In this document: in pieces, positions 27,090 to 36,833 of the stretch
Numbering within the stretch: the stretch's first letter is position 1
Layout of the letters: every line of letters starts with the position of its first letter
Source: a virus
IMG/VR virus record: IMGVR_UViG_2585428088_000002
Location: 64,395 to 103,450 of that record
Strand: one strand, 5' to 3'
DNA length: 39,056 bases
Made by a program: the position numbers and the translations under genes
The notes under the pieces: generated by a model
The model's database searches: none
What the model saw: only the letters and a program-made list of their open reading frames with translations
What the model was told of the DNA's origin: nothing

Positions 27090-29326
27090 TGGCTACGCTC
27101 ATTTTAGGAACTATAGCGAAGAACGCTGGCTGGAATGCGTTTTGGTCTGGAGTAGCCGCTATGGCCGGCAGTGTCATTGACCAATCCTTATTTGCTCCTA
27201 ACGTTAGCAGAGAAGGACCGAGATTAGATGACCTCAGACTGCAAACTTCAACGTTCGGTGCTAGCATACCTAAGATTTACGGAACGGTCAGAACAGAGTG
27301 CAATGTAATTTGGGGGACAAATTATGTTGAGCACGTTACAACAGAAAAACAAGGAGGCGGGAAGGGTGGCGGAGGCGGGTCGGTTACCACAACCAGCTAT
27401 TCCTATTCTGTGTCCTTTGCGGTTGGACTCTGTCAGGGGCCGATTAGCGGTATTGGCAGAGTGTGGGCAGACGGTAAGTTAATTGATTTAGCAAAACATG
27501 ACTATACCCTCTACTATGGTACGGAAGCACAGACTCCCGACCCTTATATGGAAGGTATCGAGGGAGTGGGCATGGTTCCGGCATACCGTGGACTAGCCTA
27601 CATCGTATTCAAGAATTTCTTTGTTACAGACTACGGAAATCGGATACCTAACCTGTCCTTTGAGGTGATGCATTCCACTACCGAGCTTAAAAACATTGTA
27701 GAAGAGATTAGCGTTAATGCTGGATTAGATTTATCCGAGATAGACGTATCGAGTATGGCAGATATCCATGTTCCGGGCTACAAAACGAGTGGCGAAAAGT
27801 CTCGCAGAAGCCAAATCGAGCAATTACAGCTGTTATATGTATTTGACGGGGTAGAGAGAAACGGCAAAGTAGTATTTAAGCAGCGGGATTTTACGAAAGT
27901 GTTACCGATCAGCTTAGATTCGATAGGCGCTTATGAAAACTCTCCGTCCTCTGAAGCCTATACTGCTACTCGCATGGATGAGAGAGAACTGCCGGTCCGT
28001 CTTACCATCAAATATTTGTCTGCAGATAAGGAGTATCAGCAAGGGGTGATGTCTGCCTTTCGCCAGTTAACACTGAGCCGAAATGAGAAATCACTAGACA
28101 CCGAATTTGTTTTAACTGATTCGCAGGCGAAAACTCTGGCAGATACTCGTCTCTATGAAGCGTGGGTTGGCAGAACCAAATATGAGTTTTCGCTTGGATC
28201 ACAATATGCTCACATACTTCCCGGTGATATTTTGGAACTGAATCTGGCCAACGAACGTAAGGCTCTAATCGTTGTTAGCAAAGTCTCATATGGCAAGCCA
28301 GGAATCATAAAGATTCAGGCAGAGTCGACTTATGCTAGTACGTATACTCTTGTAACTCGGAACGTCGATCCTGAACCGCAGCTCCAGACGGCAGAACCAG
28401 CAACCGAAATTACTACTGAGTTCTTAGATATACCTCGTTTGCCGGGGGATAACAGCCAGACCGATGATACGATTTACGTTGCTTCAACAGCTAGTGTTTA
28501 TTACGGAGCCAGTGTATTCCGCTCAAACGATGGAGGCCTGACCTATTCCTTAAACCTGTATCGAACACCACAAGCCTATATGGGGGTCACTACGACTGCT
28601 TTAGCAAGTGGACCAACTGTTTATTGGGATAACGCTAATACATTAGATGTAGTTATGAGCTATGGAAGTTTAGAAAGCCGACCAGTTCTGGATGTACTAA
28701 ACGGATTTAATGCCGCGCTAGTGGGCGATGAAATTATTCAGTTTACTACTGCCCTACTGATTGCGCCCAACACCTATCGAATATCGGTTTTGCTAAGAGG
28801 AAGGCTTGGTACTGAACACAAAGCAGCGTCCCATGTGGCGGGCGAGAGATTTGTTTTGTTGTCATTGTCTATGCTCGGCAGGCTCACAGTGCCTTCTTCG
28901 GACTGGTTTCAGAGTCGATTGTTCCGCGTTGGGCCTTCGACACTTCCAATGACAAACCATTTATATCAGGATAAACACTTTACTTCCCAGGGAATTATGG
29001 CTCTTCCTTTATCGCCTTGTCACATAACTGGTTCTAGAGATGACAGTGGAAACCTCACTATTTCCTGGATTCGTCGTACACGTGGAGACGGTAGCTGGAA
29101 GGAACTGGTTGATGTTCCGCTAAGTGAGAAAAGTGAGATGTACGAAATCGATGTGGTAAGTGAAGGAACTGTTAAAAGAACCTTACGGACTGTATCGTCG
29201 TTTGTTATCTATTCAGCAGATGAGCAAATAGCCGATTTTGGTAGTGTGCAAAGTCTGATAAAGGTCCGGATTTATCAGATGAGCGAATCGAGAGGGCGAG
29301 GAACCGTGAGGGAGGAGATAATTTGA
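27089..29326 (+). CDS. Large tail tip/host specificity protein (GTA megatron/gpJ-like)
   Basis: EGPRLDDL..QTS..G..IP..YG..R...NVIW, PAYRGLAYIVF, YGNRIP, LLRGRLGTE, W.RRTR. Confidence 0.88.
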   Translation: MATLILGTIAKNAGWNAFWSGVAAMAGSVIDQSLFAPNVSREGPRLDDLRLQTSTFGASIPKIYGTVRTECNVIWGTNYVEHVTTEKQGGGKGGGGGSVTTTSYSYSVSFAVGLCQGPISGIGRVWADGKLIDLAKHDYTLYYGTEAQTPDPYMEGIEGVGMVPAYRGLAYIVFKNFFVTDYGNRIPNLSFEVMHSTTELKNIVEEISVNAGLDLSEIDVSSMADIHVPGYKTSGEKSRRSQIEQLQLLYVFDGVERNGKVVFKQRDFTKVLPISLDSIGAYENSPSSEAYTATRMDERELPVRLTIKYLSADKEYQQGVMSAFRQLTLSRNEKSLDTEFVLTDSQAKTLADTRLYEAWVGRTKYEFSLGSQYAHILPGDILELNLANERKALIVVSKVSYGKPGIIKIQAESTYASTYTLVTRNVDPEPQLQTAEPATEITTEFLDIPRLPGDNSQTDDTIYVASTASVYYGASVFRSNDGGLTYSLNLYRTPQAYMGVTTTALASGPTVYWDNANTLDVVMSYGSLESRPVLDVLNGFNAALVGDEIIQFTTALLIAPNTYRISVLLRGRLGTEHKAASHVAGERFVLLSLSMLGRLTVPSSDWFQSRLFRVGPSTLPMTNHLYQDKHFTSQGIMALPLSPCHITGSRDDSGNLTISWIRRTRGDGSWKELVDVPLSEKSEMYEIDVVSEGTVKRTLRTVSSFVIYSADEQIADFGSVQSLIKVRIYQMSESRGRGTVREEII

Positions 29327-31570: not shown

Positions 31571-31639
31571 GTTACTCATTTTTATAACAGAAACAAGTGA
31601 TCATAACCAAAGTTGAATTTGAAGAGGGAGAGGTTAAAG

Positions 31640-32224
31640 ATGAGAATAGTCATTGATCCGGGCCATGCGGGCCGAAACATTGATCCCGGCGCAGTTCATG
31701 CGGCAACAGGCTTGCAGGAGGCGGATGTCGCGCTGATAATTTCGCGGCAAGTAGCAAGATATCTGCTTAATGTAGGGTATGCGGTGAAACTAACTCGAAC
31801 CGAATGGGAACAAGAAGAAACGGATGATCTAAGCTATCGGACAGTTCTGGCGAATGACTGGGGCGCCGATATTTTTATTTCTCTTCATTGCAATAGCGCG
31901 GCGAATCAGAGCGCGGAAGGCTATGAGGTTTGGACTTCGCCGGGAAATACACTCGGTGACAAGCTTGCCACATGCATATATGGGCAAATTGCCGCCGAGT
32001 TTCCCAACCGGGCAGGAAGGACGGATTACTCTGACGGTGATCCCGATAAGGAGTCGCGCTTCTATGTATTGGTCTATACCGACGCGCCTGCCTGCTTGGT
32101 GGAAATGGCGTTTATTTCAAATGATGAGGAAGCGGCCTTGTTGGCAAACGCCGCGTGGCGGGACCAGTATGCGAGGGCAATTGCGCGGGGAGTGACTGAT
32201 TACACAGCGACGCTGGGGGGATGA
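31640..32224 (+). CDS. Endolysin, N-acetylmuramoyl-L-alanine amidase (Amidase_3), no cell-wall-binding domain
   Basis: IDPGHAG..DPGA...E, FISLHCNS, ACLVEMAFISN. Confidence 0.93.
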   Translation: MRIVIDPGHAGRNIDPGAVHAATGLQEADVALIISRQVARYLLNVGYAVKLTRTEWEQEETDDLSYRTVLANDWGADIFISLHCNSAANQSAEGYEVWTSPGNTLGDKLATCIYGQIAAEFPNRAGRTDYSDGDPDKESRFYVLVYTDAPACLVEMAFISNDEEAALLANAAWRDQYARAIARGVTDYTATLGG

Positions 32225-32857: not shown

Positions 32858-32893
32858 AGTGAAAATATCTTTTGGGTTTAGCCCAGATATCGC

Positions 32894-32921
32894 TTGCTAT
32901 TTATAAACACGGAGCTATACT
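32894..32921 (+). promoter_or_regulatory. SigmaA-like promoter for the symE leader transcript
   Basis: TTGCTA-16-TATACT. Confidence 0.55.
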
Positions 32922-32936
32922 GGTGTCAGGTGGAAA

Positions 32937-33032
32937 TAAAAAAGTCGCCGCGACCTGGAAGTGTTCCCGCACTCCCAAGCTCGCGCAGGTGAGTAAGCAC
33001 CTACACGTAACAGCCAAGCTGTCCACGACGAC
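32937..33032 (-). ncRNA. About 95-nt four-way-junction antisense RNA (candidate type I antitoxin)
   Basis: Four fully paired stems on the minus strand with six G-U pairs; starts 7 nt after TATAAT; ends in U6. Confidence 0.75.
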
Positions 33033-33038
33033 AATTTT

Positions 33039-33067
33039 ATTATACAGCGCGCCCTTCTTTTCAACAA
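33039..33067 (-). promoter_or_regulatory. SigmaA promoter of the antisense RNA
   Basis: TTGTTG-17-TATAAT on the minus strand. Confidence 0.7.
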
Positions 33068-33357
33068 GCAAGGAAACGCCTTTTCTGTGTAATGAAAATG
33101 GTCAGGCTCGGGCAGGGGCTGAGCGGCTGCATGCGGAAAAACCGACGAAAGCCAAGGAGAACTACAATGGCGGGCTACGCCGGCCGGTCCTTGGAGTACG
33201 TCGGACAACTAAGCCTTTCAGCGCATGTGTAGGTCGATAGAGGCCTGGCGTGCGCTTTTTGATTTCCCCCGCAAAACAGGCTCCGTCCGTTTCTTTTCCG
33301 CCATTGAAGCGGCGGAGGCTTCGGCGCGGCCTGAATATCAGGGGAGGTGGCTGACCG

Positions 33358-33549
33358 ATGCCAGAGAAGACAAGGCTAAACCGTAGGCTGTCCGTCTATT
33401 ATCTTTACCAGAACAACAAGCCGGTGCCGATTATCCGGCTGCAGGGAAAATGGCTCCGGAGGCTTGGCTTTGAGCCGGGCGGCAAGATTACAGTGGTTGC
33501 AAGAAAAGGCCTGTTGCTTGTCAGGCTTATTCCCGATGCCGAAGCATAG
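33358..33549 (+). CDS. symE: SymE-family type I toxin
   Basis: RRLSVYY......VPIIRLQGKWLRRLGFEPG.KITV......L; GGAGGTG RBS. Confidence 0.85.
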   Translation: MPEKTRLNRRLSVYYLYQNNKPVPIIRLQGKWLRRLGFEPGGKITVVARKGLLLVRLIPDAEA

Positions 33550-33614: not shown

Positions 33615-34146
33615 TTATGTTTGCTCCTGGTTTACCAAGCCGGCCAATTCGTGCCAATAGCCAGGCTCCCAATACCGCCTCGCCGCTCCCGAAGTCGAGG
33701 GCGCTACAAGAATAGCGGCAGGATTGTCCTTCATGAGGCAAGGGCCATAGCTGATCTGGGAGGTTTTTCGCCTGCGCTGGTCTTGCCGGCTGAAAAATAA
33801 GGCGGCCGCGCTTTGCCGTTGAAACAAATGACTTGGGGGCGAAAAAGGGCCAGCTTTTGCACAAAAGCTTCCAAGTCATATTCTTTTTGCGCGATTTTCG
33901 CGTCCACGCCGGCCGCTTTTTTTGCGATGTCTGTCAATCCAATGCCATAGCTTAGCAATCCAGATACTCTGAAGTGTGCAGCAGGCGGTCTGTCAAGCCG
34001 GTTTCATGAAGTATCCTCCAAAATCTGTTGTTTTCGCCTGCATAATAAGAGCCAAGCTTGGCGGAATGTTCGGCAGCAGCTGTTCCGCAAATAACAAGCT
34101 TCAGATTGGGACGCAAGACGTCTGGCAGAATGTCGCTGGTTGGCAT
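33615..34146 (-). pseudogene. mug: Mismatch-specific uracil-DNA glycosylase (MUG/TDG family), two 1-bp deletions
   Basis: Three frames join: LPDVL.P.L..V.CG...YYAG..NRFW / YGIGLTD...FNGK / PSTSGAARRYW; breaks near 33959 and 33811. Confidence 0.85.
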
Positions 34147-34237: not shown

Positions 34238-34267
34238 GTATGGAATTTGATAGAAAGGAGCAGGCTT

Positions 34268-35569
34268 ATGCGGGTCAGAATCATTGAACCAGTGAGTTGG
34301 GTGCAGCTAAAACGCAAACGGGTCTGTGCTTATGCCAGGGTATCTTCTGGCAGCGAAGCCCAAGGCGAGTCGCTGGAAAACCAAACCACCTATTATCGGA
34401 AGCTGATTGCAGCCAATCCGGAATATGAATATGTTGACATTTTTGCAGACTATGGAACCACCGGCACCAAGGAAGCGCGGCCGGAGTTTCAAAGGATGCT
34501 GGCTTTGGCGAGAACAAGGGAAATTGACTTAATTCTAACGAAATCCATCTCCCGTTTTGCCCGCAACACAACGCTGGTGCTGGAGACGGTCAGGGAGTTA
34601 AAGGAACTGGGGGTAGAAGTCGTTTTTGAAAAAGACAATATTTCGACCTTTACGAGGGACGGCGAGCTGATGCTTACCGTCCTCTCTTCTTTTGCCCAGG
34701 AAGAAAGCAAAAGCGCCAGTGAAAATCTCAAGTGGCGGTATCGGCGAAAATTTGAGCAAGGGGAACTGGCCCTCAATGTCACCCGGTTTTTGGGCTATGA
34801 CAAAAACAAGCACGGCGAATTGGTGATCAACCCAATTCAAGCCAAAGTGGTCGAGCGTATTTTCGCCGACTATGTCAGCGGCAAGGGAAGCTTTGTCATT
34901 GCCAGAGAACTGAACGCCGCAGGGGTTAGGACAGTGGCAGGAGGCAAGTGGCACTCCGGCACTGTGCTGAATATCCTCAAAAACGAAAAATACAAGGGCG
35001 ATGCCAAGCTGCAAAAGACCTACAGCAAGGACCATCTCAGCAAAAAGAAGTGCGTCAATCACGGCGAGGTCGAAAGCTTCTATATCGAGAATAACCATCC
35101 GCCAATCGTAAGCAGAGAAATCTGGGATGAAACACAAAGACTGATTATTTTGCGCGCTAAGGCCAAGGGCAATGTAGAAGAAACCAAAAACAAGTACCAA
35201 AACCGCTATCCGCTGACGGGGATGCTGCTGTGCAGCAAGTGCGGGGCGCCTTTGCGCCGGAGAACTTGGAACAGCAAATATTGCTGTAAAAAAGTGGTGT
35301 GGCAATGCAGCACCTATATTAAAAACGGTAAAAACGCCTGCCAGGGCACAACGATTGAAGATGATGAGATTGGCAGAGTGAATATACAAACCGAAACCGT
35401 GGTCGAGGAGGTTATGACAAATGGCAAAAAACATTACCGTTATACCAGCCAAGGCGAACCGGACAAGCCTTGCGGAAAACCTAGAGCTACAGAAAAAACG
35501 TGTAGCCGCGTACTGCCGGGTATCGACCGATCAGGAAGAGCAGTTATCAAGCTACGAAGCCCAGGTTAA
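34268..35569 (+). CDS. Large serine recombinase 1
   Basis: CAYARVSS catalytic motif, TKSISRFARN, recombinase domain NEKYKGD, Zn ribbon CSKC...WQC...C. Confidence 0.93.
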   Translation: MRVRIIEPVSWVQLKRKRVCAYARVSSGSEAQGESLENQTTYYRKLIAANPEYEYVDIFADYGTTGTKEARPEFQRMLALARTREIDLILTKSISRFARNTTLVLETVRELKELGVEVVFEKDNISTFTRDGELMLTVLSSFAQEESKSASENLKWRYRRKFEQGELALNVTRFLGYDKNKHGELVINPIQAKVVERIFADYVSGKGSFVIARELNAAGVRTVAGGKWHSGTVLNILKNEKYKGDAKLQKTYSKDHLSKKKCVNHGEVESFYIENNHPPIVSREIWDETQRLIILRAKAKGNVEETKNKYQNRYPLTGMLLCSKCGAPLRRRTWNSKYCCKKVVWQCSTYIKNGKNACQGTTIEDDEIGRVNIQTETVVEEVMTNGKKHYRYTSQGEPDKPCGKPRATEKTCSRVLPGIDRSGRAVIKLRSPG

Positions 35570-36833
35570 CTACTACACGAACTATATCGAAAAACATCCG
35601 GATTATAAATTTGCCGGCATTTATGCCGATGAGGGCATCAGCGGCACCACCACCAAAAAGCGCGAGCAGTTTAACAGGATGATTGAAGACTGCAAAGCTG
35701 GAAAAATCGATAGGATCATCACGAAATCCATCTCGCGGTTTGCCAGAAACACATTGGATACCTTGACCTATGTTCGGATGCTCAAAGAGTTAGGGATCGA
35801 AGTGTTTTTCGAGAAGGAAAATATAAGAACCCTTGACAGCAAGGGAGAGGTGCTTTTATCCATTTTAAGTTCACTTGCGCAAGACGAGTCGCGATCAATC
35901 TCGGAAAACTCGACCTGGGGCATCCGACGGCGTTTTGAGCAGGGCAAGCTGCATGTTAATCACACCAAGTTTTTGGGATATGACAAAGATAAAAACGGCA
36001 ACCTCGTTGTCAATGAAAAGCAGGCTAAAATCGTCAGACGCATTTACACAGAATTCCTTGACGGCAAAGGAGCCAACCGGATCGCGAGAGACTTGGAGTT
36101 GGGCGGCGTAGCAAACTGGAATGGCAAGGCCAAATGGTATGAAGGCAGCATCCGGAAAATGCTTACCAATGAGAAATATAAGGGCGACGCGCTGCTACAG
36201 AAAACCTACACTGTTGATTTCTTGAGCAAAAAACGGGCAGACAACAATGGCCAGGTGCCGCAGTATTATGTGGAAGATAGCCATCCAGCAATTATTGACA
36301 AAGAAATGTGGGAAGCGGTGCAGCTTGAGATGGAGCGCAGGCGGAATTTTGCTCTGCAGTATGGCATTCAGAAGCTTGAGTACGCGACAACGGACAATCC
36401 TTTTGCGGGTAGAGTCATCTGCGGCTCCTGCGGTCAGGTTTTTGGCAGGAAGGTTTGGAACTCAACTGATGACCGGTTCAGGCGGATTATCTGGCGCTGC
36501 AACGGCAAATATCCGGCGAAGGGCGAAAAGGGCTGTGAAAGCAGGCATATCGATGATGTGGTTTTATATCAGGCTTTCGTTGATGTATTTAATACGCTGG
36601 TCGAAAACAAAGAGTATTTTCTCGGTAAATGGAAAAAACTGCGGGGAAGTGACAATCCGCTTCAACGCTACAAAGCAAAACAGTTTTCCAAAATCATTGT
36701 TGAGGCAGGGCGGATCAGTAAATTTGATATTGACCTCTATTTTGCCCTGACGGAAAAAATAGAGGTATTTGGCGAGGGCAGATTGGGTGTCAGTTTGCTT
36801 GACGGTACAGAACTCGAATGCCTAATTGAATAG
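35421..36833 (+). CDS. Large serine recombinase 2
   Basis: AAYCRVST, DEGISG, TKSISRFARN, CGSC...WRC...C; GAGGAGG RBS. Confidence 0.95.
   Translation: MAKNITVIPAKANRTSLAENLELQKKRVAAYCRVSTDQEEQLSSYEAQVNYYTNYIEKHPDYKFAGIYADEGISGTTTKKREQFNRMIEDCKAGKIDRIITKSISRFARNTLDTLTYVRMLKELGIEVFFEKENIRTLDSKGEVLLSILSSLAQDESRSISENSTWGIRRRFEQGKLHVNHTKFLGYDKDKNGNLVVNEKQAKIVRRIYTEFLDGKGANRIARDLELGGVANWNGKAKWYEGSIRKMLTNEKYKGDALLQKTYTVDFLSKKRADNNGQVPQYYVEDSHPAIIDKEMWEAVQLEMERRRNFALQYGIQKLEYATTDNPFAGRVICGSCGQVFGRKVWNSTDDRFRRIIWRCNGKYPAKGEKGCESRHIDDVVLYQAFVDVFNTLVENKEYFLGKWKKLRGSDNPLQRYKAKQFSKIIVEAGRISKFDIDLYFALTEKIEVFGEGRLGVSLLDGTELECLIE

Follow-up and report, generated by a model that had tools for sequence, protein, structure and literature searches.

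A conserved antisense RNA predicted upstream of a prophage symE-like gene, with relatives in Negativicutes and Desulfitobacteriaceae

In Escherichia coli the antisense RNA SymR covers the ribosome-binding site and the start codon of symE. How could a symE-like gene be governed by an antisense RNA that is encoded far upstream of both sites, and is such an RNA devoted to symE at all? These questions are raised by a locus in a viral sequence (IMG/VR record IMGVR_UViG_2585428088_000002, positions 64,395 to 103,450), here called the window, meaning the whole stretch of 39,056 nucleotides that was analyzed and in whose numbering all coordinates are given. As in the E. coli pair, a cargo with the SymE_toxin domain is faced there by a cis-encoded antisense RNA; unlike SymR, the window RNA has its 5' end 326 nt before the symE ATG and overlaps neither the ribosome-binding site nor the start codon; a first-pass annotation of the DNA had recognized that it does not reach the symE start and had put the distance at more than 320 nt. 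The same annotation reasoned that control would have to be long-range, attenuation being one of its guesses, and that the locus represents an undescribed type I toxin-antitoxin architecture or class of non-coding RNA.

This article describes the RNA, the leader that separates it from the downstream gene and the related loci of other genomes. The convergent promoters, the RNA gene, the terminator hairpin and the anti-Shine-Dalgarno tract (Table 1) make up a cassette that appears to be a portable control unit and is apparently undescribed: no description of the RNA or of the cassette was found in the literature on non-coding RNA discovery, Sporomusa small RNAs, type I toxin-antitoxin systems in Negativicutes or DUF6809.

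Table 1. Elements of the cassette in the window, with the basis of each assignment.
Feature	Position	Strand	Basis
P+ promoter of the leader/symE transcript: TTGCTA, 16 nt, TATACT	32894..32921	+	promoter scan
Conserved box AGGTGGAAAT(T)AAAAA, predicted 5' end of the plus-strand transcript	32928..32943	+	-10 spacing
Antisense RNA, ~95 nt, four-way junction	32938..33032	-	MFE fold; family fold and covariation
P1 closing stem	33032-33024/32952-32944	-	MFE fold
P2 hairpin	33023-33018/33014-33009	-	MFE fold
P3 hairpin	33007-32998/32991-32982	-	MFE fold
P4, third hairpin	32980-32970/32963-32953	-	MFE fold
U6 tail of the RNA	32943-32938	-	directly after closing stem P1
Leader segment ACCUACACGU, complement of the RNA P3 5' arm; predicted antiterminator partner of 33225-33234	32999..33008	+	nascent-leader MFE and centroid
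P- promoter of the RNA: TTGTTG (33067-33062), 17 nt, TATAAT (33044-33039)	33039..33067	-	read directly
Conserved leader block (GGC..GCG.CTGCATGC.)	33117..33136	+	conserved across leader subgroups
Attenuator: hairpin 33220-33255 and U5 33256-33260; 5' arm CGCATGTGTAGG copies the RNA P3 5' arm	33220..33260	+	fold, homologs
Anti-Shine-Dalgarno C-rich tract AUUUCCCC, directly 3' of the attenuator	33262..33269	+	MFE pairing with 33341-33348
Shine-Dalgarno region GGGGAGGU of symE, 10 nt before the ATG	33341..33348	+	predicted paired with 33262-33269
symE-like ORF, 63 aa; ATG at 33358	33358..33549	+	PF08845

The minus-strand RNA and its relatives

The cloverleaf is predicted to be a real and conserved antisense RNA gene of about 95 nt, well beyond what a chance fold would give. 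Its promoter motifs, their spacing and the G at 33032 are present where the first-pass annotation had placed them, and this G, the predicted +1, lies seven nt 3' of the TATAAT. For the 96 nt from 33032 to 32937 the MFE structure is the closing stem P1 around three hairpins, as had been drawn before, with -52.0 kcal/mol and 76% of the ensemble; shuffled versions average -31.0 kcal/mol (z -6.76) and none of 200 is as stable. The complementary plus strand folds to just -31.0 kcal/mol (z -3.1). The earlier argument for a strand-specific fold was built on six G-U pairs; eight are counted in the minus-strand MFE, and with these the argument holds. Unusually, the stem that closes this multibranch fold would have to serve as the terminator of the RNA.

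Two other readings of the same nucleotides were rejected. A tRNA identity is at odds with arms of 9, 6, 10 and 11 bp and with variable loops unlike those of a tRNA, and ARAGORN found no tRNA or tmRNA gene in the whole window. The plus-strand ORF that runs across the RNA (32872-33240) has no Pfam match, and the variation falls on paired, compensating positions of P4, which speaks against coding.

Searches for known families with Rfam 15 gave no match in the whole window at the gathering score; when the segment 32700-33700 was scanned at E<=10, two chance-level matches (E 4-6) were obtained, both outside the RNA and neither of them to symR. In line with the first-pass annotation, the RNA is unrelated to SymR and apparently undescribed. 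No match to the cassette was found by blastn in phage and plasmid collections. In 60 related genomes blastn showed positions 32928-33046 to be 75-86% identical to many loci, a conservation far above that of symE. In an alignment of 56 copies the TATAAT of P-, the TTGT of its -35 element and the stems are nearly invariant, and RNAalifold on 55 homologs independently gives the same four-way junction. A covariance model built on the RNA (R1), with which the window RNA scores 97.3 bits, gives 80-111 bits on the RNA strand versus about 27-37 bits on the opposite strand. With 97 distinct sequences aligned and full-length matches of 73.7-111 bits, all but one at 84 or above, the RNA qualifies as a candidate for a new Rfam family.

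Full-length R1 matches of 80-111 bits were found in 28 of 151 genomes of Negativicutes, belonging to 11 families and carrying 1-25 copies each, and in none of 147 genomes of the same phylum outside the class; the genome of the window has one copy. By a 16-mer scan filtered through R1, the named carriers are Sporomusa, Pelosinus, Propionispora and Propionispira, together with Desulfosporosinus and Desulfitobacterium (Desulfitobacteriaceae) outside the class Negativicutes. A few hundred chance matches of 16-mers are expected, by estimate, in a collection of that size, and those in Lachnospiraceae, Erysipelotrichaceae, Paenibacillus, archaea and other groups, as well as a single IMG/VR record, were rejected because none passed R1. 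Most families of Negativicutes that were searched, including most with genomes under about 3 Mb, have no copy. Most of the named carriers are endospore formers with large genomes; a link of the RNA to sporulation or to life in soil and sediment is possible, and the distribution may as well simply mirror genome size. Full-scoring RNAs (87-99 bits) without a recognizable leader or attenuator occur at L058/L125 (one locus), L078 and L116; these are perhaps orphan genes of the RNA or the remains of decayed cassettes.

How the RNA varies is informative on its structure. In the 97 distinct RNAs 99.3% of cells pair, compared with 28-47% when the partners are slid. Covariation among homologs, named as a check in the first-pass annotation, bears out the third hairpin, P4, which contains all seven pairs with compensatory changes, and does not extend to P1-P3, where no stem pair varies on both sides. 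The G-U pairs U8-G112, G14-U28 and U34-G71, which would be A-C on the opposite strand, are kept in 91-97 of the 97 RNAs. Alignment columns of stems P1-P3 have an entropy of 0.07-0.08 bits, those of the three loops and of the middle of P4 one of 1.06-1.33 bits, and the sets of loops are distinct among all paralogs compared (6, 9, 9 and 8 paralogs in four genomes). In plasmid antisense RNAs, loop-loop contacts initiate pairing and keep related systems apart (studies of pIP501 and ColE1, cited in PMC3181467); hypervariable loops are the pattern to be expected here if such contacts were to start the pairing and to separate paralogous switches.

Convergent promoters and the leader

The convergent plus-strand promoter that the first-pass annotation had located at 32894 was recovered independently by a promoter scan and is conserved in homologs: among 97 distinct homologs the -35 element of P+ is TTGCAA in 81, and its -10 element TATAAT in 75 and TATACT in seven. 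In the same number of homologs P- has TATAAT in 96, a -35 element that is almost always TTGTnn and a 17-nt spacer in 85. Both promoters are of sigma-A type and converge about 100 nt apart, with predicted start sites about 104 nt from each other. The box AGGTGGAAAT(T)AAAAA is almost invariant in the alignment of the RNA element (A1) and in two leader alignments, and the spacing from the -10 element suggests that the plus-strand transcript starts in it. The scan detected no promoter-like site between the terminator at 33220-33260 and symE, so that expression of symE would need read-through. If P+ is the symE promoter, the RNA would be complementary to the symE mRNA; P+ and P- are both conserved, and no other promoter was detected ahead of symE. 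In one subgroup of homologs only, a second plus-strand promoter (TGGTATAAT-like) is seen just beyond P-. The LexA box of Gram-positive bacteria has a GAAC-N4-GTTC-like consensus; with up to one mismatch allowed, no such site was found after window position 28384, about 4.5 kb before the cassette, and hence, unlike E. coli symE, the locus has no LexA-like box near P+.

The first ~100 nt of the leader are the exact complement of the antisense RNA. About 290 nt into the leader, the hairpin at 33220-33255 with its U5 run has, as modeled, the shape of an intrinsic terminator (-22.8 kcal/mol on the plus strand and -10.5 on the minus strand). Such an attenuator is present in all 81 distinct copies, with a mean dG of -22.4 kcal/mol and 5-8 U within 9 nt 3' of the stem, and a comparison of 80 homologs shows no variation in the 5' arm CGCATGTGTAGG and covariation in the outer pairs. 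The earlier guess that control is exerted over a distance by attenuation fits such a conserved hairpin, placed as it is between the RNA and symE. The 5' arm of this terminator (AUGUGUAGGU) is nearly identical to the 5' arm of P3 in the RNA (ACGUGUAGGU), both containing GUGUAGG, and the P3 hairpin as well as the terminator hairpin precede a U5-6 run that is followed by AAUUUCC.

Since the terminator arm is close to a copy of the P3 arm, the complement of P3 in the leader (32999-33008) can pair with 33225-33234. This duplex has -14.5 kcal/mol, and in the nascent leader 32928-33241 the long-range pairing is present in the MFE as well as in the centroid structure. When nascent leaders were folded up to the terminator loop, 78 of 106, that of the window included, had the terminator arm paired with the antisense target in their MFE structure. 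Where the arm was forced to pair upstream, the mean cost was 5.9 kcal/mol (median 5.65), to be compared with total energies of -90 to -160 kcal/mol, and for the window leader it was 0.0; the partner preferred in these constrained folds was the P3 complement. With the antisense target blocked, the terminator formed in all leaders; in the full leader at equilibrium it is in the MFE even with the target unblocked. Equilibrium folding thus gives the terminator with and without blocking, and the alternative structure is seen solely in the folds of nascent or constrained leaders; any switch must therefore be kinetic, which is usual for attenuators. To form, the antiterminator proposed here would have to bridge about 215 nt in the window and some 150-290 nt in homologs, in competition with local hairpins. 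Both of its partners are invariant, so covariation cannot bear on it. The invariance of P3 would follow if P3, its complement and the terminator arm constrain one another, and this three-way constraint does not cover P1 and P2.

A palindromic core of GCAUGC type recurs in the leader at 33126-33133, in the upstream conserved block, and at 33221-33227 and 33249-33255, in the arms of the attenuator; it is found at the same sites in homologs and, in most of them, also just 5' of the ribosome-binding site. Several further alternative pairings of the leader are possible on account of this repetition.

Beyond the attenuator, the pairing of the anti-Shine-Dalgarno tract with the Shine-Dalgarno region of symE is part of the MFE of 32928-33380. 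It is predicted in 92 of 105 leaders, and changes are matched on both sides, as in the variants UUCCCC/GGGGGA, UUCUCC/GGAGGG and UUCCUC/GAGGA. The ribosome-binding site that follows the attenuator opens a short leader ORF of 2-73 codons in 39 of 86 homologs, which ends at, overlaps or lies near the start of the cargo; symE of the window is without one. The stop of the leader ORF mostly overlaps or abuts the cargo start (offsets -8, -4, 0), for example in L010, L013, L075, L105 and L114, whose cargo belongs to the MYRTYRTT family treated below, and in MYRTYRTT loci these ORFs are located about 380-540 nt into the cassette. The offsets hold despite indels that change the frame, which suggests translational coupling and not a conserved peptide.

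Cargo genes and a possible attenuation switch

The symE-like ORF is present in a single copy in its genome. It matches SymE_toxin (PF08845) over residues 8-56 with E 3.5e-11 and 43.5 bits (cut-off 29), and the protein barely exceeds the 54 positions of the domain. Unlike E. coli SymE, it has 63 aa versus the 113 positions of the NCBIfam SymE equivalog, to which it is a weak match below the cut-off (25.5 bits vs. 132). At related loci the order of RNA element, second conserved block and ORF is constant, and the RNA with its leader precedes at least eight unrelated families of small ORFs: SymE-like, DUF6809-like, MYRTYRTT (90-110 aa), a 105-aa family (..YVFDRV..), a Sporomusa family of 61-67 aa, a 55-aa family of Desulfosporosinus/Desulfitobacterium, and families of 84 and 64 aa. 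For this reason the RNA is not a symE-specific antitoxin, and the first reading was too narrow in this respect; it was right in kind, as the RNA is predicted to be a new antisense RNA that acts at a distance.

Comparison of the cargoes with Pfam, NCBIfam and PADLOC put a name only to SymE and, at or below threshold, to DUF6809; models of defense and toxin systems gave no match, and a typical hydrophobic type I toxin is not among the cargoes. The commonest cargo is the MYRTYRTT family (81-110 aa; L075:1985-2251, minus strand, and 21 relatives in alignment A5), which is under clear protein-level selection. Its AlphaFold model (pLDDT 77) has six beta strands and a C-terminal helix; neither a Pfam, NCBIfam or PADLOC family nor a PDB fold match to the model was found.

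By analogy with pT181, pIP501 and pCF10, the cassette may operate by countertranscript-driven attenuation, to which occlusion of the ribosome-binding site is added, and would in this way control a possible type I toxin; the chances that this proposal is correct are put at about even. P- would make a very stable four-way-junction RNA of ~95 nt, and P+ a long leader of the downstream gene whose 5' ~100 nt are complementary to that RNA. In the nascent leader the terminator arm would pair with 32999-33008, the terminator would be delayed and the polymerase would reach symE; with the antisense RNA bound to its target, the terminator would form and transcription would stop. Binding would probably begin at the three hairpin loops, which differ among paralogs. 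Transcripts that had read through would be translationally silent, the anti-Shine-Dalgarno tract pairing with the symE ribosome-binding site. Given the minimal SymE-type cargo, the unit may act as a module like a type I toxin-antitoxin, carried as a moron at the prophage end.

RNAI of pT181 (Novick 1989) and RNAIII of pIP501 (Heidrich & Brantl 2007) are reportedly countertranscript attenuators of this sort. Anti-Q of pCF10, whose promoter and PQ converge, targets the nascent prgQ RNA and favors the terminator IRS1, an effect for which no host factor except RNA polymerase is needed (PMC3181467; see also Johnson 2010 on Anti-Q/prgQ, as cited there). The cassette shares with the three plasmid systems a small multi-hairpin antisense RNA that is made from a convergent promoter and has its target in the 5' leader, a factor-independent terminator, here predicted, between the target and the regulated gene, and an alternative pairing that involves the target sequence, here predicted in silico. 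It has no sequence or Rfam relationship to them. Those systems are plasmid-borne, control replication or conjugation and have one copy per replicon; the cassette resides in chromosomes or prophages, occurs 1-25 times per genome and precedes small ORFs that are unrelated, and it differs further in the four-way junction of its RNA and in the additional occlusion of the ribosome-binding site. The class of mechanism is already known; the RNA family, the architecture and their spread apparently are not.

A classical type I toxin-antitoxin would use the same parts in another way: the RNA would base-pair to the symE mRNA near its 5' end, with a post-transcriptional effect through duplex cleavage of RNase III type or a locked inert fold, and the hairpin at 33220-33255 would be a mere stabilizer or leaky terminator. 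The SymE_toxin domain of the cargo, a cis-antisense RNA expressed from a separate promoter, the dispersal of many copies over the chromosome of one genome and a long structured leader whose ribosome-binding site is occluded, as in many type I toxin mRNAs, all agree with this reading, as does the leader ORF near the cargo start in 39 of 86 homologs, which resembles the ldrX arrangement (PMC8167048). With hok/sok, ldr/rdl and tisB/istR (PMC8167048) the cassette shares a long and highly folded leader, an occluded ribosome-binding site, an antisense RNA acting upstream of the toxin start, several copies per genome and, in many homologs, leader ORFs coupled to the cargo; SymR itself, according to the summary of Kawano 2007 given in PMC8167048, blocks translation by pairing within the symE 5' UTR. 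The toxins of hok/sok, ldr/rdl and tisB/istR are, however, small membrane peptides, none of these systems uses a terminator between target and ORF, and there is no homology to the cassette. Most cargoes here lie outside known toxin families, the U-run conserved in every copy with no promoter beyond it points to control of termination, and purely post-transcriptional action would leave the mimicry between terminator arm and P3 arm without a role, so that this explanation is considered rather unlikely.

That mimicry could also mean that a protein or another factor reads the GUGUAGG hairpin of P3 and of the terminator, with the RNA titrating or sharing the factor and the pairing with the leader being secondary. 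In two bacterial classes the sequence of P1-P3 stays invariant, a constraint beyond structural need, while P4 covaries freely, and the two hairpins have sequence, U-run and AAUUUCC in common; yet the cassette offers no candidate protein, its flanks are not conserved, and the three-way pairing constraint already accounts for the invariance of P3, which makes a decoy role improbable. A similarly low probability is given to a leader that senses a ligand or signal as a cis-regulator, the minus-strand RNA being the by-product of a divergent or interfering promoter that acts chiefly by transcriptional interference. Convergent promoters merely ~100 nt apart would suit such interference, and several conserved blocks of the leader do lie outside the antisense overlap; against this, it is the minus strand that has by far the stronger and strand-specific structure, its terminator and G-U pairs are conserved, and no Rfam cis-regulator was matched.

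More broadly, the loci of spore-forming Negativicutes and Desulfitobacteriaceae might form an undescribed superfamily of RNA-controlled small-protein modules, a view that is offered tentatively and with more doubt than confidence. A loop-hypervariable RNA would serve as a private switch for each of up to 25 paralogs per genome, by means of terminator mimicry and occlusion of the ribosome-binding site, and the cargoes, soluble and unrelated to one another (SymE, DUF6809 and at least six unnamed families), would represent new type I toxins that are not membrane proteins, or effectors of stress or sporulation. If the attenuation model is correct, the cassette would be the first chromosomal, multi-copy case of countertranscript-driven attenuation beyond the control of plasmid replication and conjugation, and would provide a natural set of mutually distinct antisense switches with a common scaffold and differing loops. 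It would also give a handle on at least eight uncharacterized families of small proteins, DUF6809 included, of acetogens and of Firmicutes that reduce organohalides or sulfate, which are genetically hard to study, and extend SymE-type proteins to a regulatory architecture far from E. coli symE/SymR.

Genomic surroundings of the cassette

The window cassette is located between the lysis cassette of the prophage (amidase at 31613-32224) and serine recombinase genes (34247 onwards), and is in moron position at the prophage end. Most copies of the family occupy ordinary chromosomal sites, and the flanking genes differ from locus to locus. In Pelosinus fermentans and P. baikalensis one of the copies is found at an equivalent site among ordinary chromosomal genes, and a Desulfosporosinus copy is likewise surrounded by ordinary genes.

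Between symE and the recombinases, a gene of the uracil-DNA-glycosylase superfamily is apparently split into two adjacent minus-strand ORFs (33731-34146). The ORF at 33952-34146 (64 aa) matches positions 1-50 of PF03167 and that at 33731-33958 (75 aa) has no match; the region looks like a frameshifted or decayed gene. Two overlapping plus-strand ORFs follow: the product of 34247-35569 contains Resolvase, Recombinase and Zn_ribbon_recom domains and is a large serine recombinase, and the N-terminus encoded by 35421-36833 is similar to it by eye. Together they probably constitute the prophage integration module, which places the cassette at the end of the prophage.
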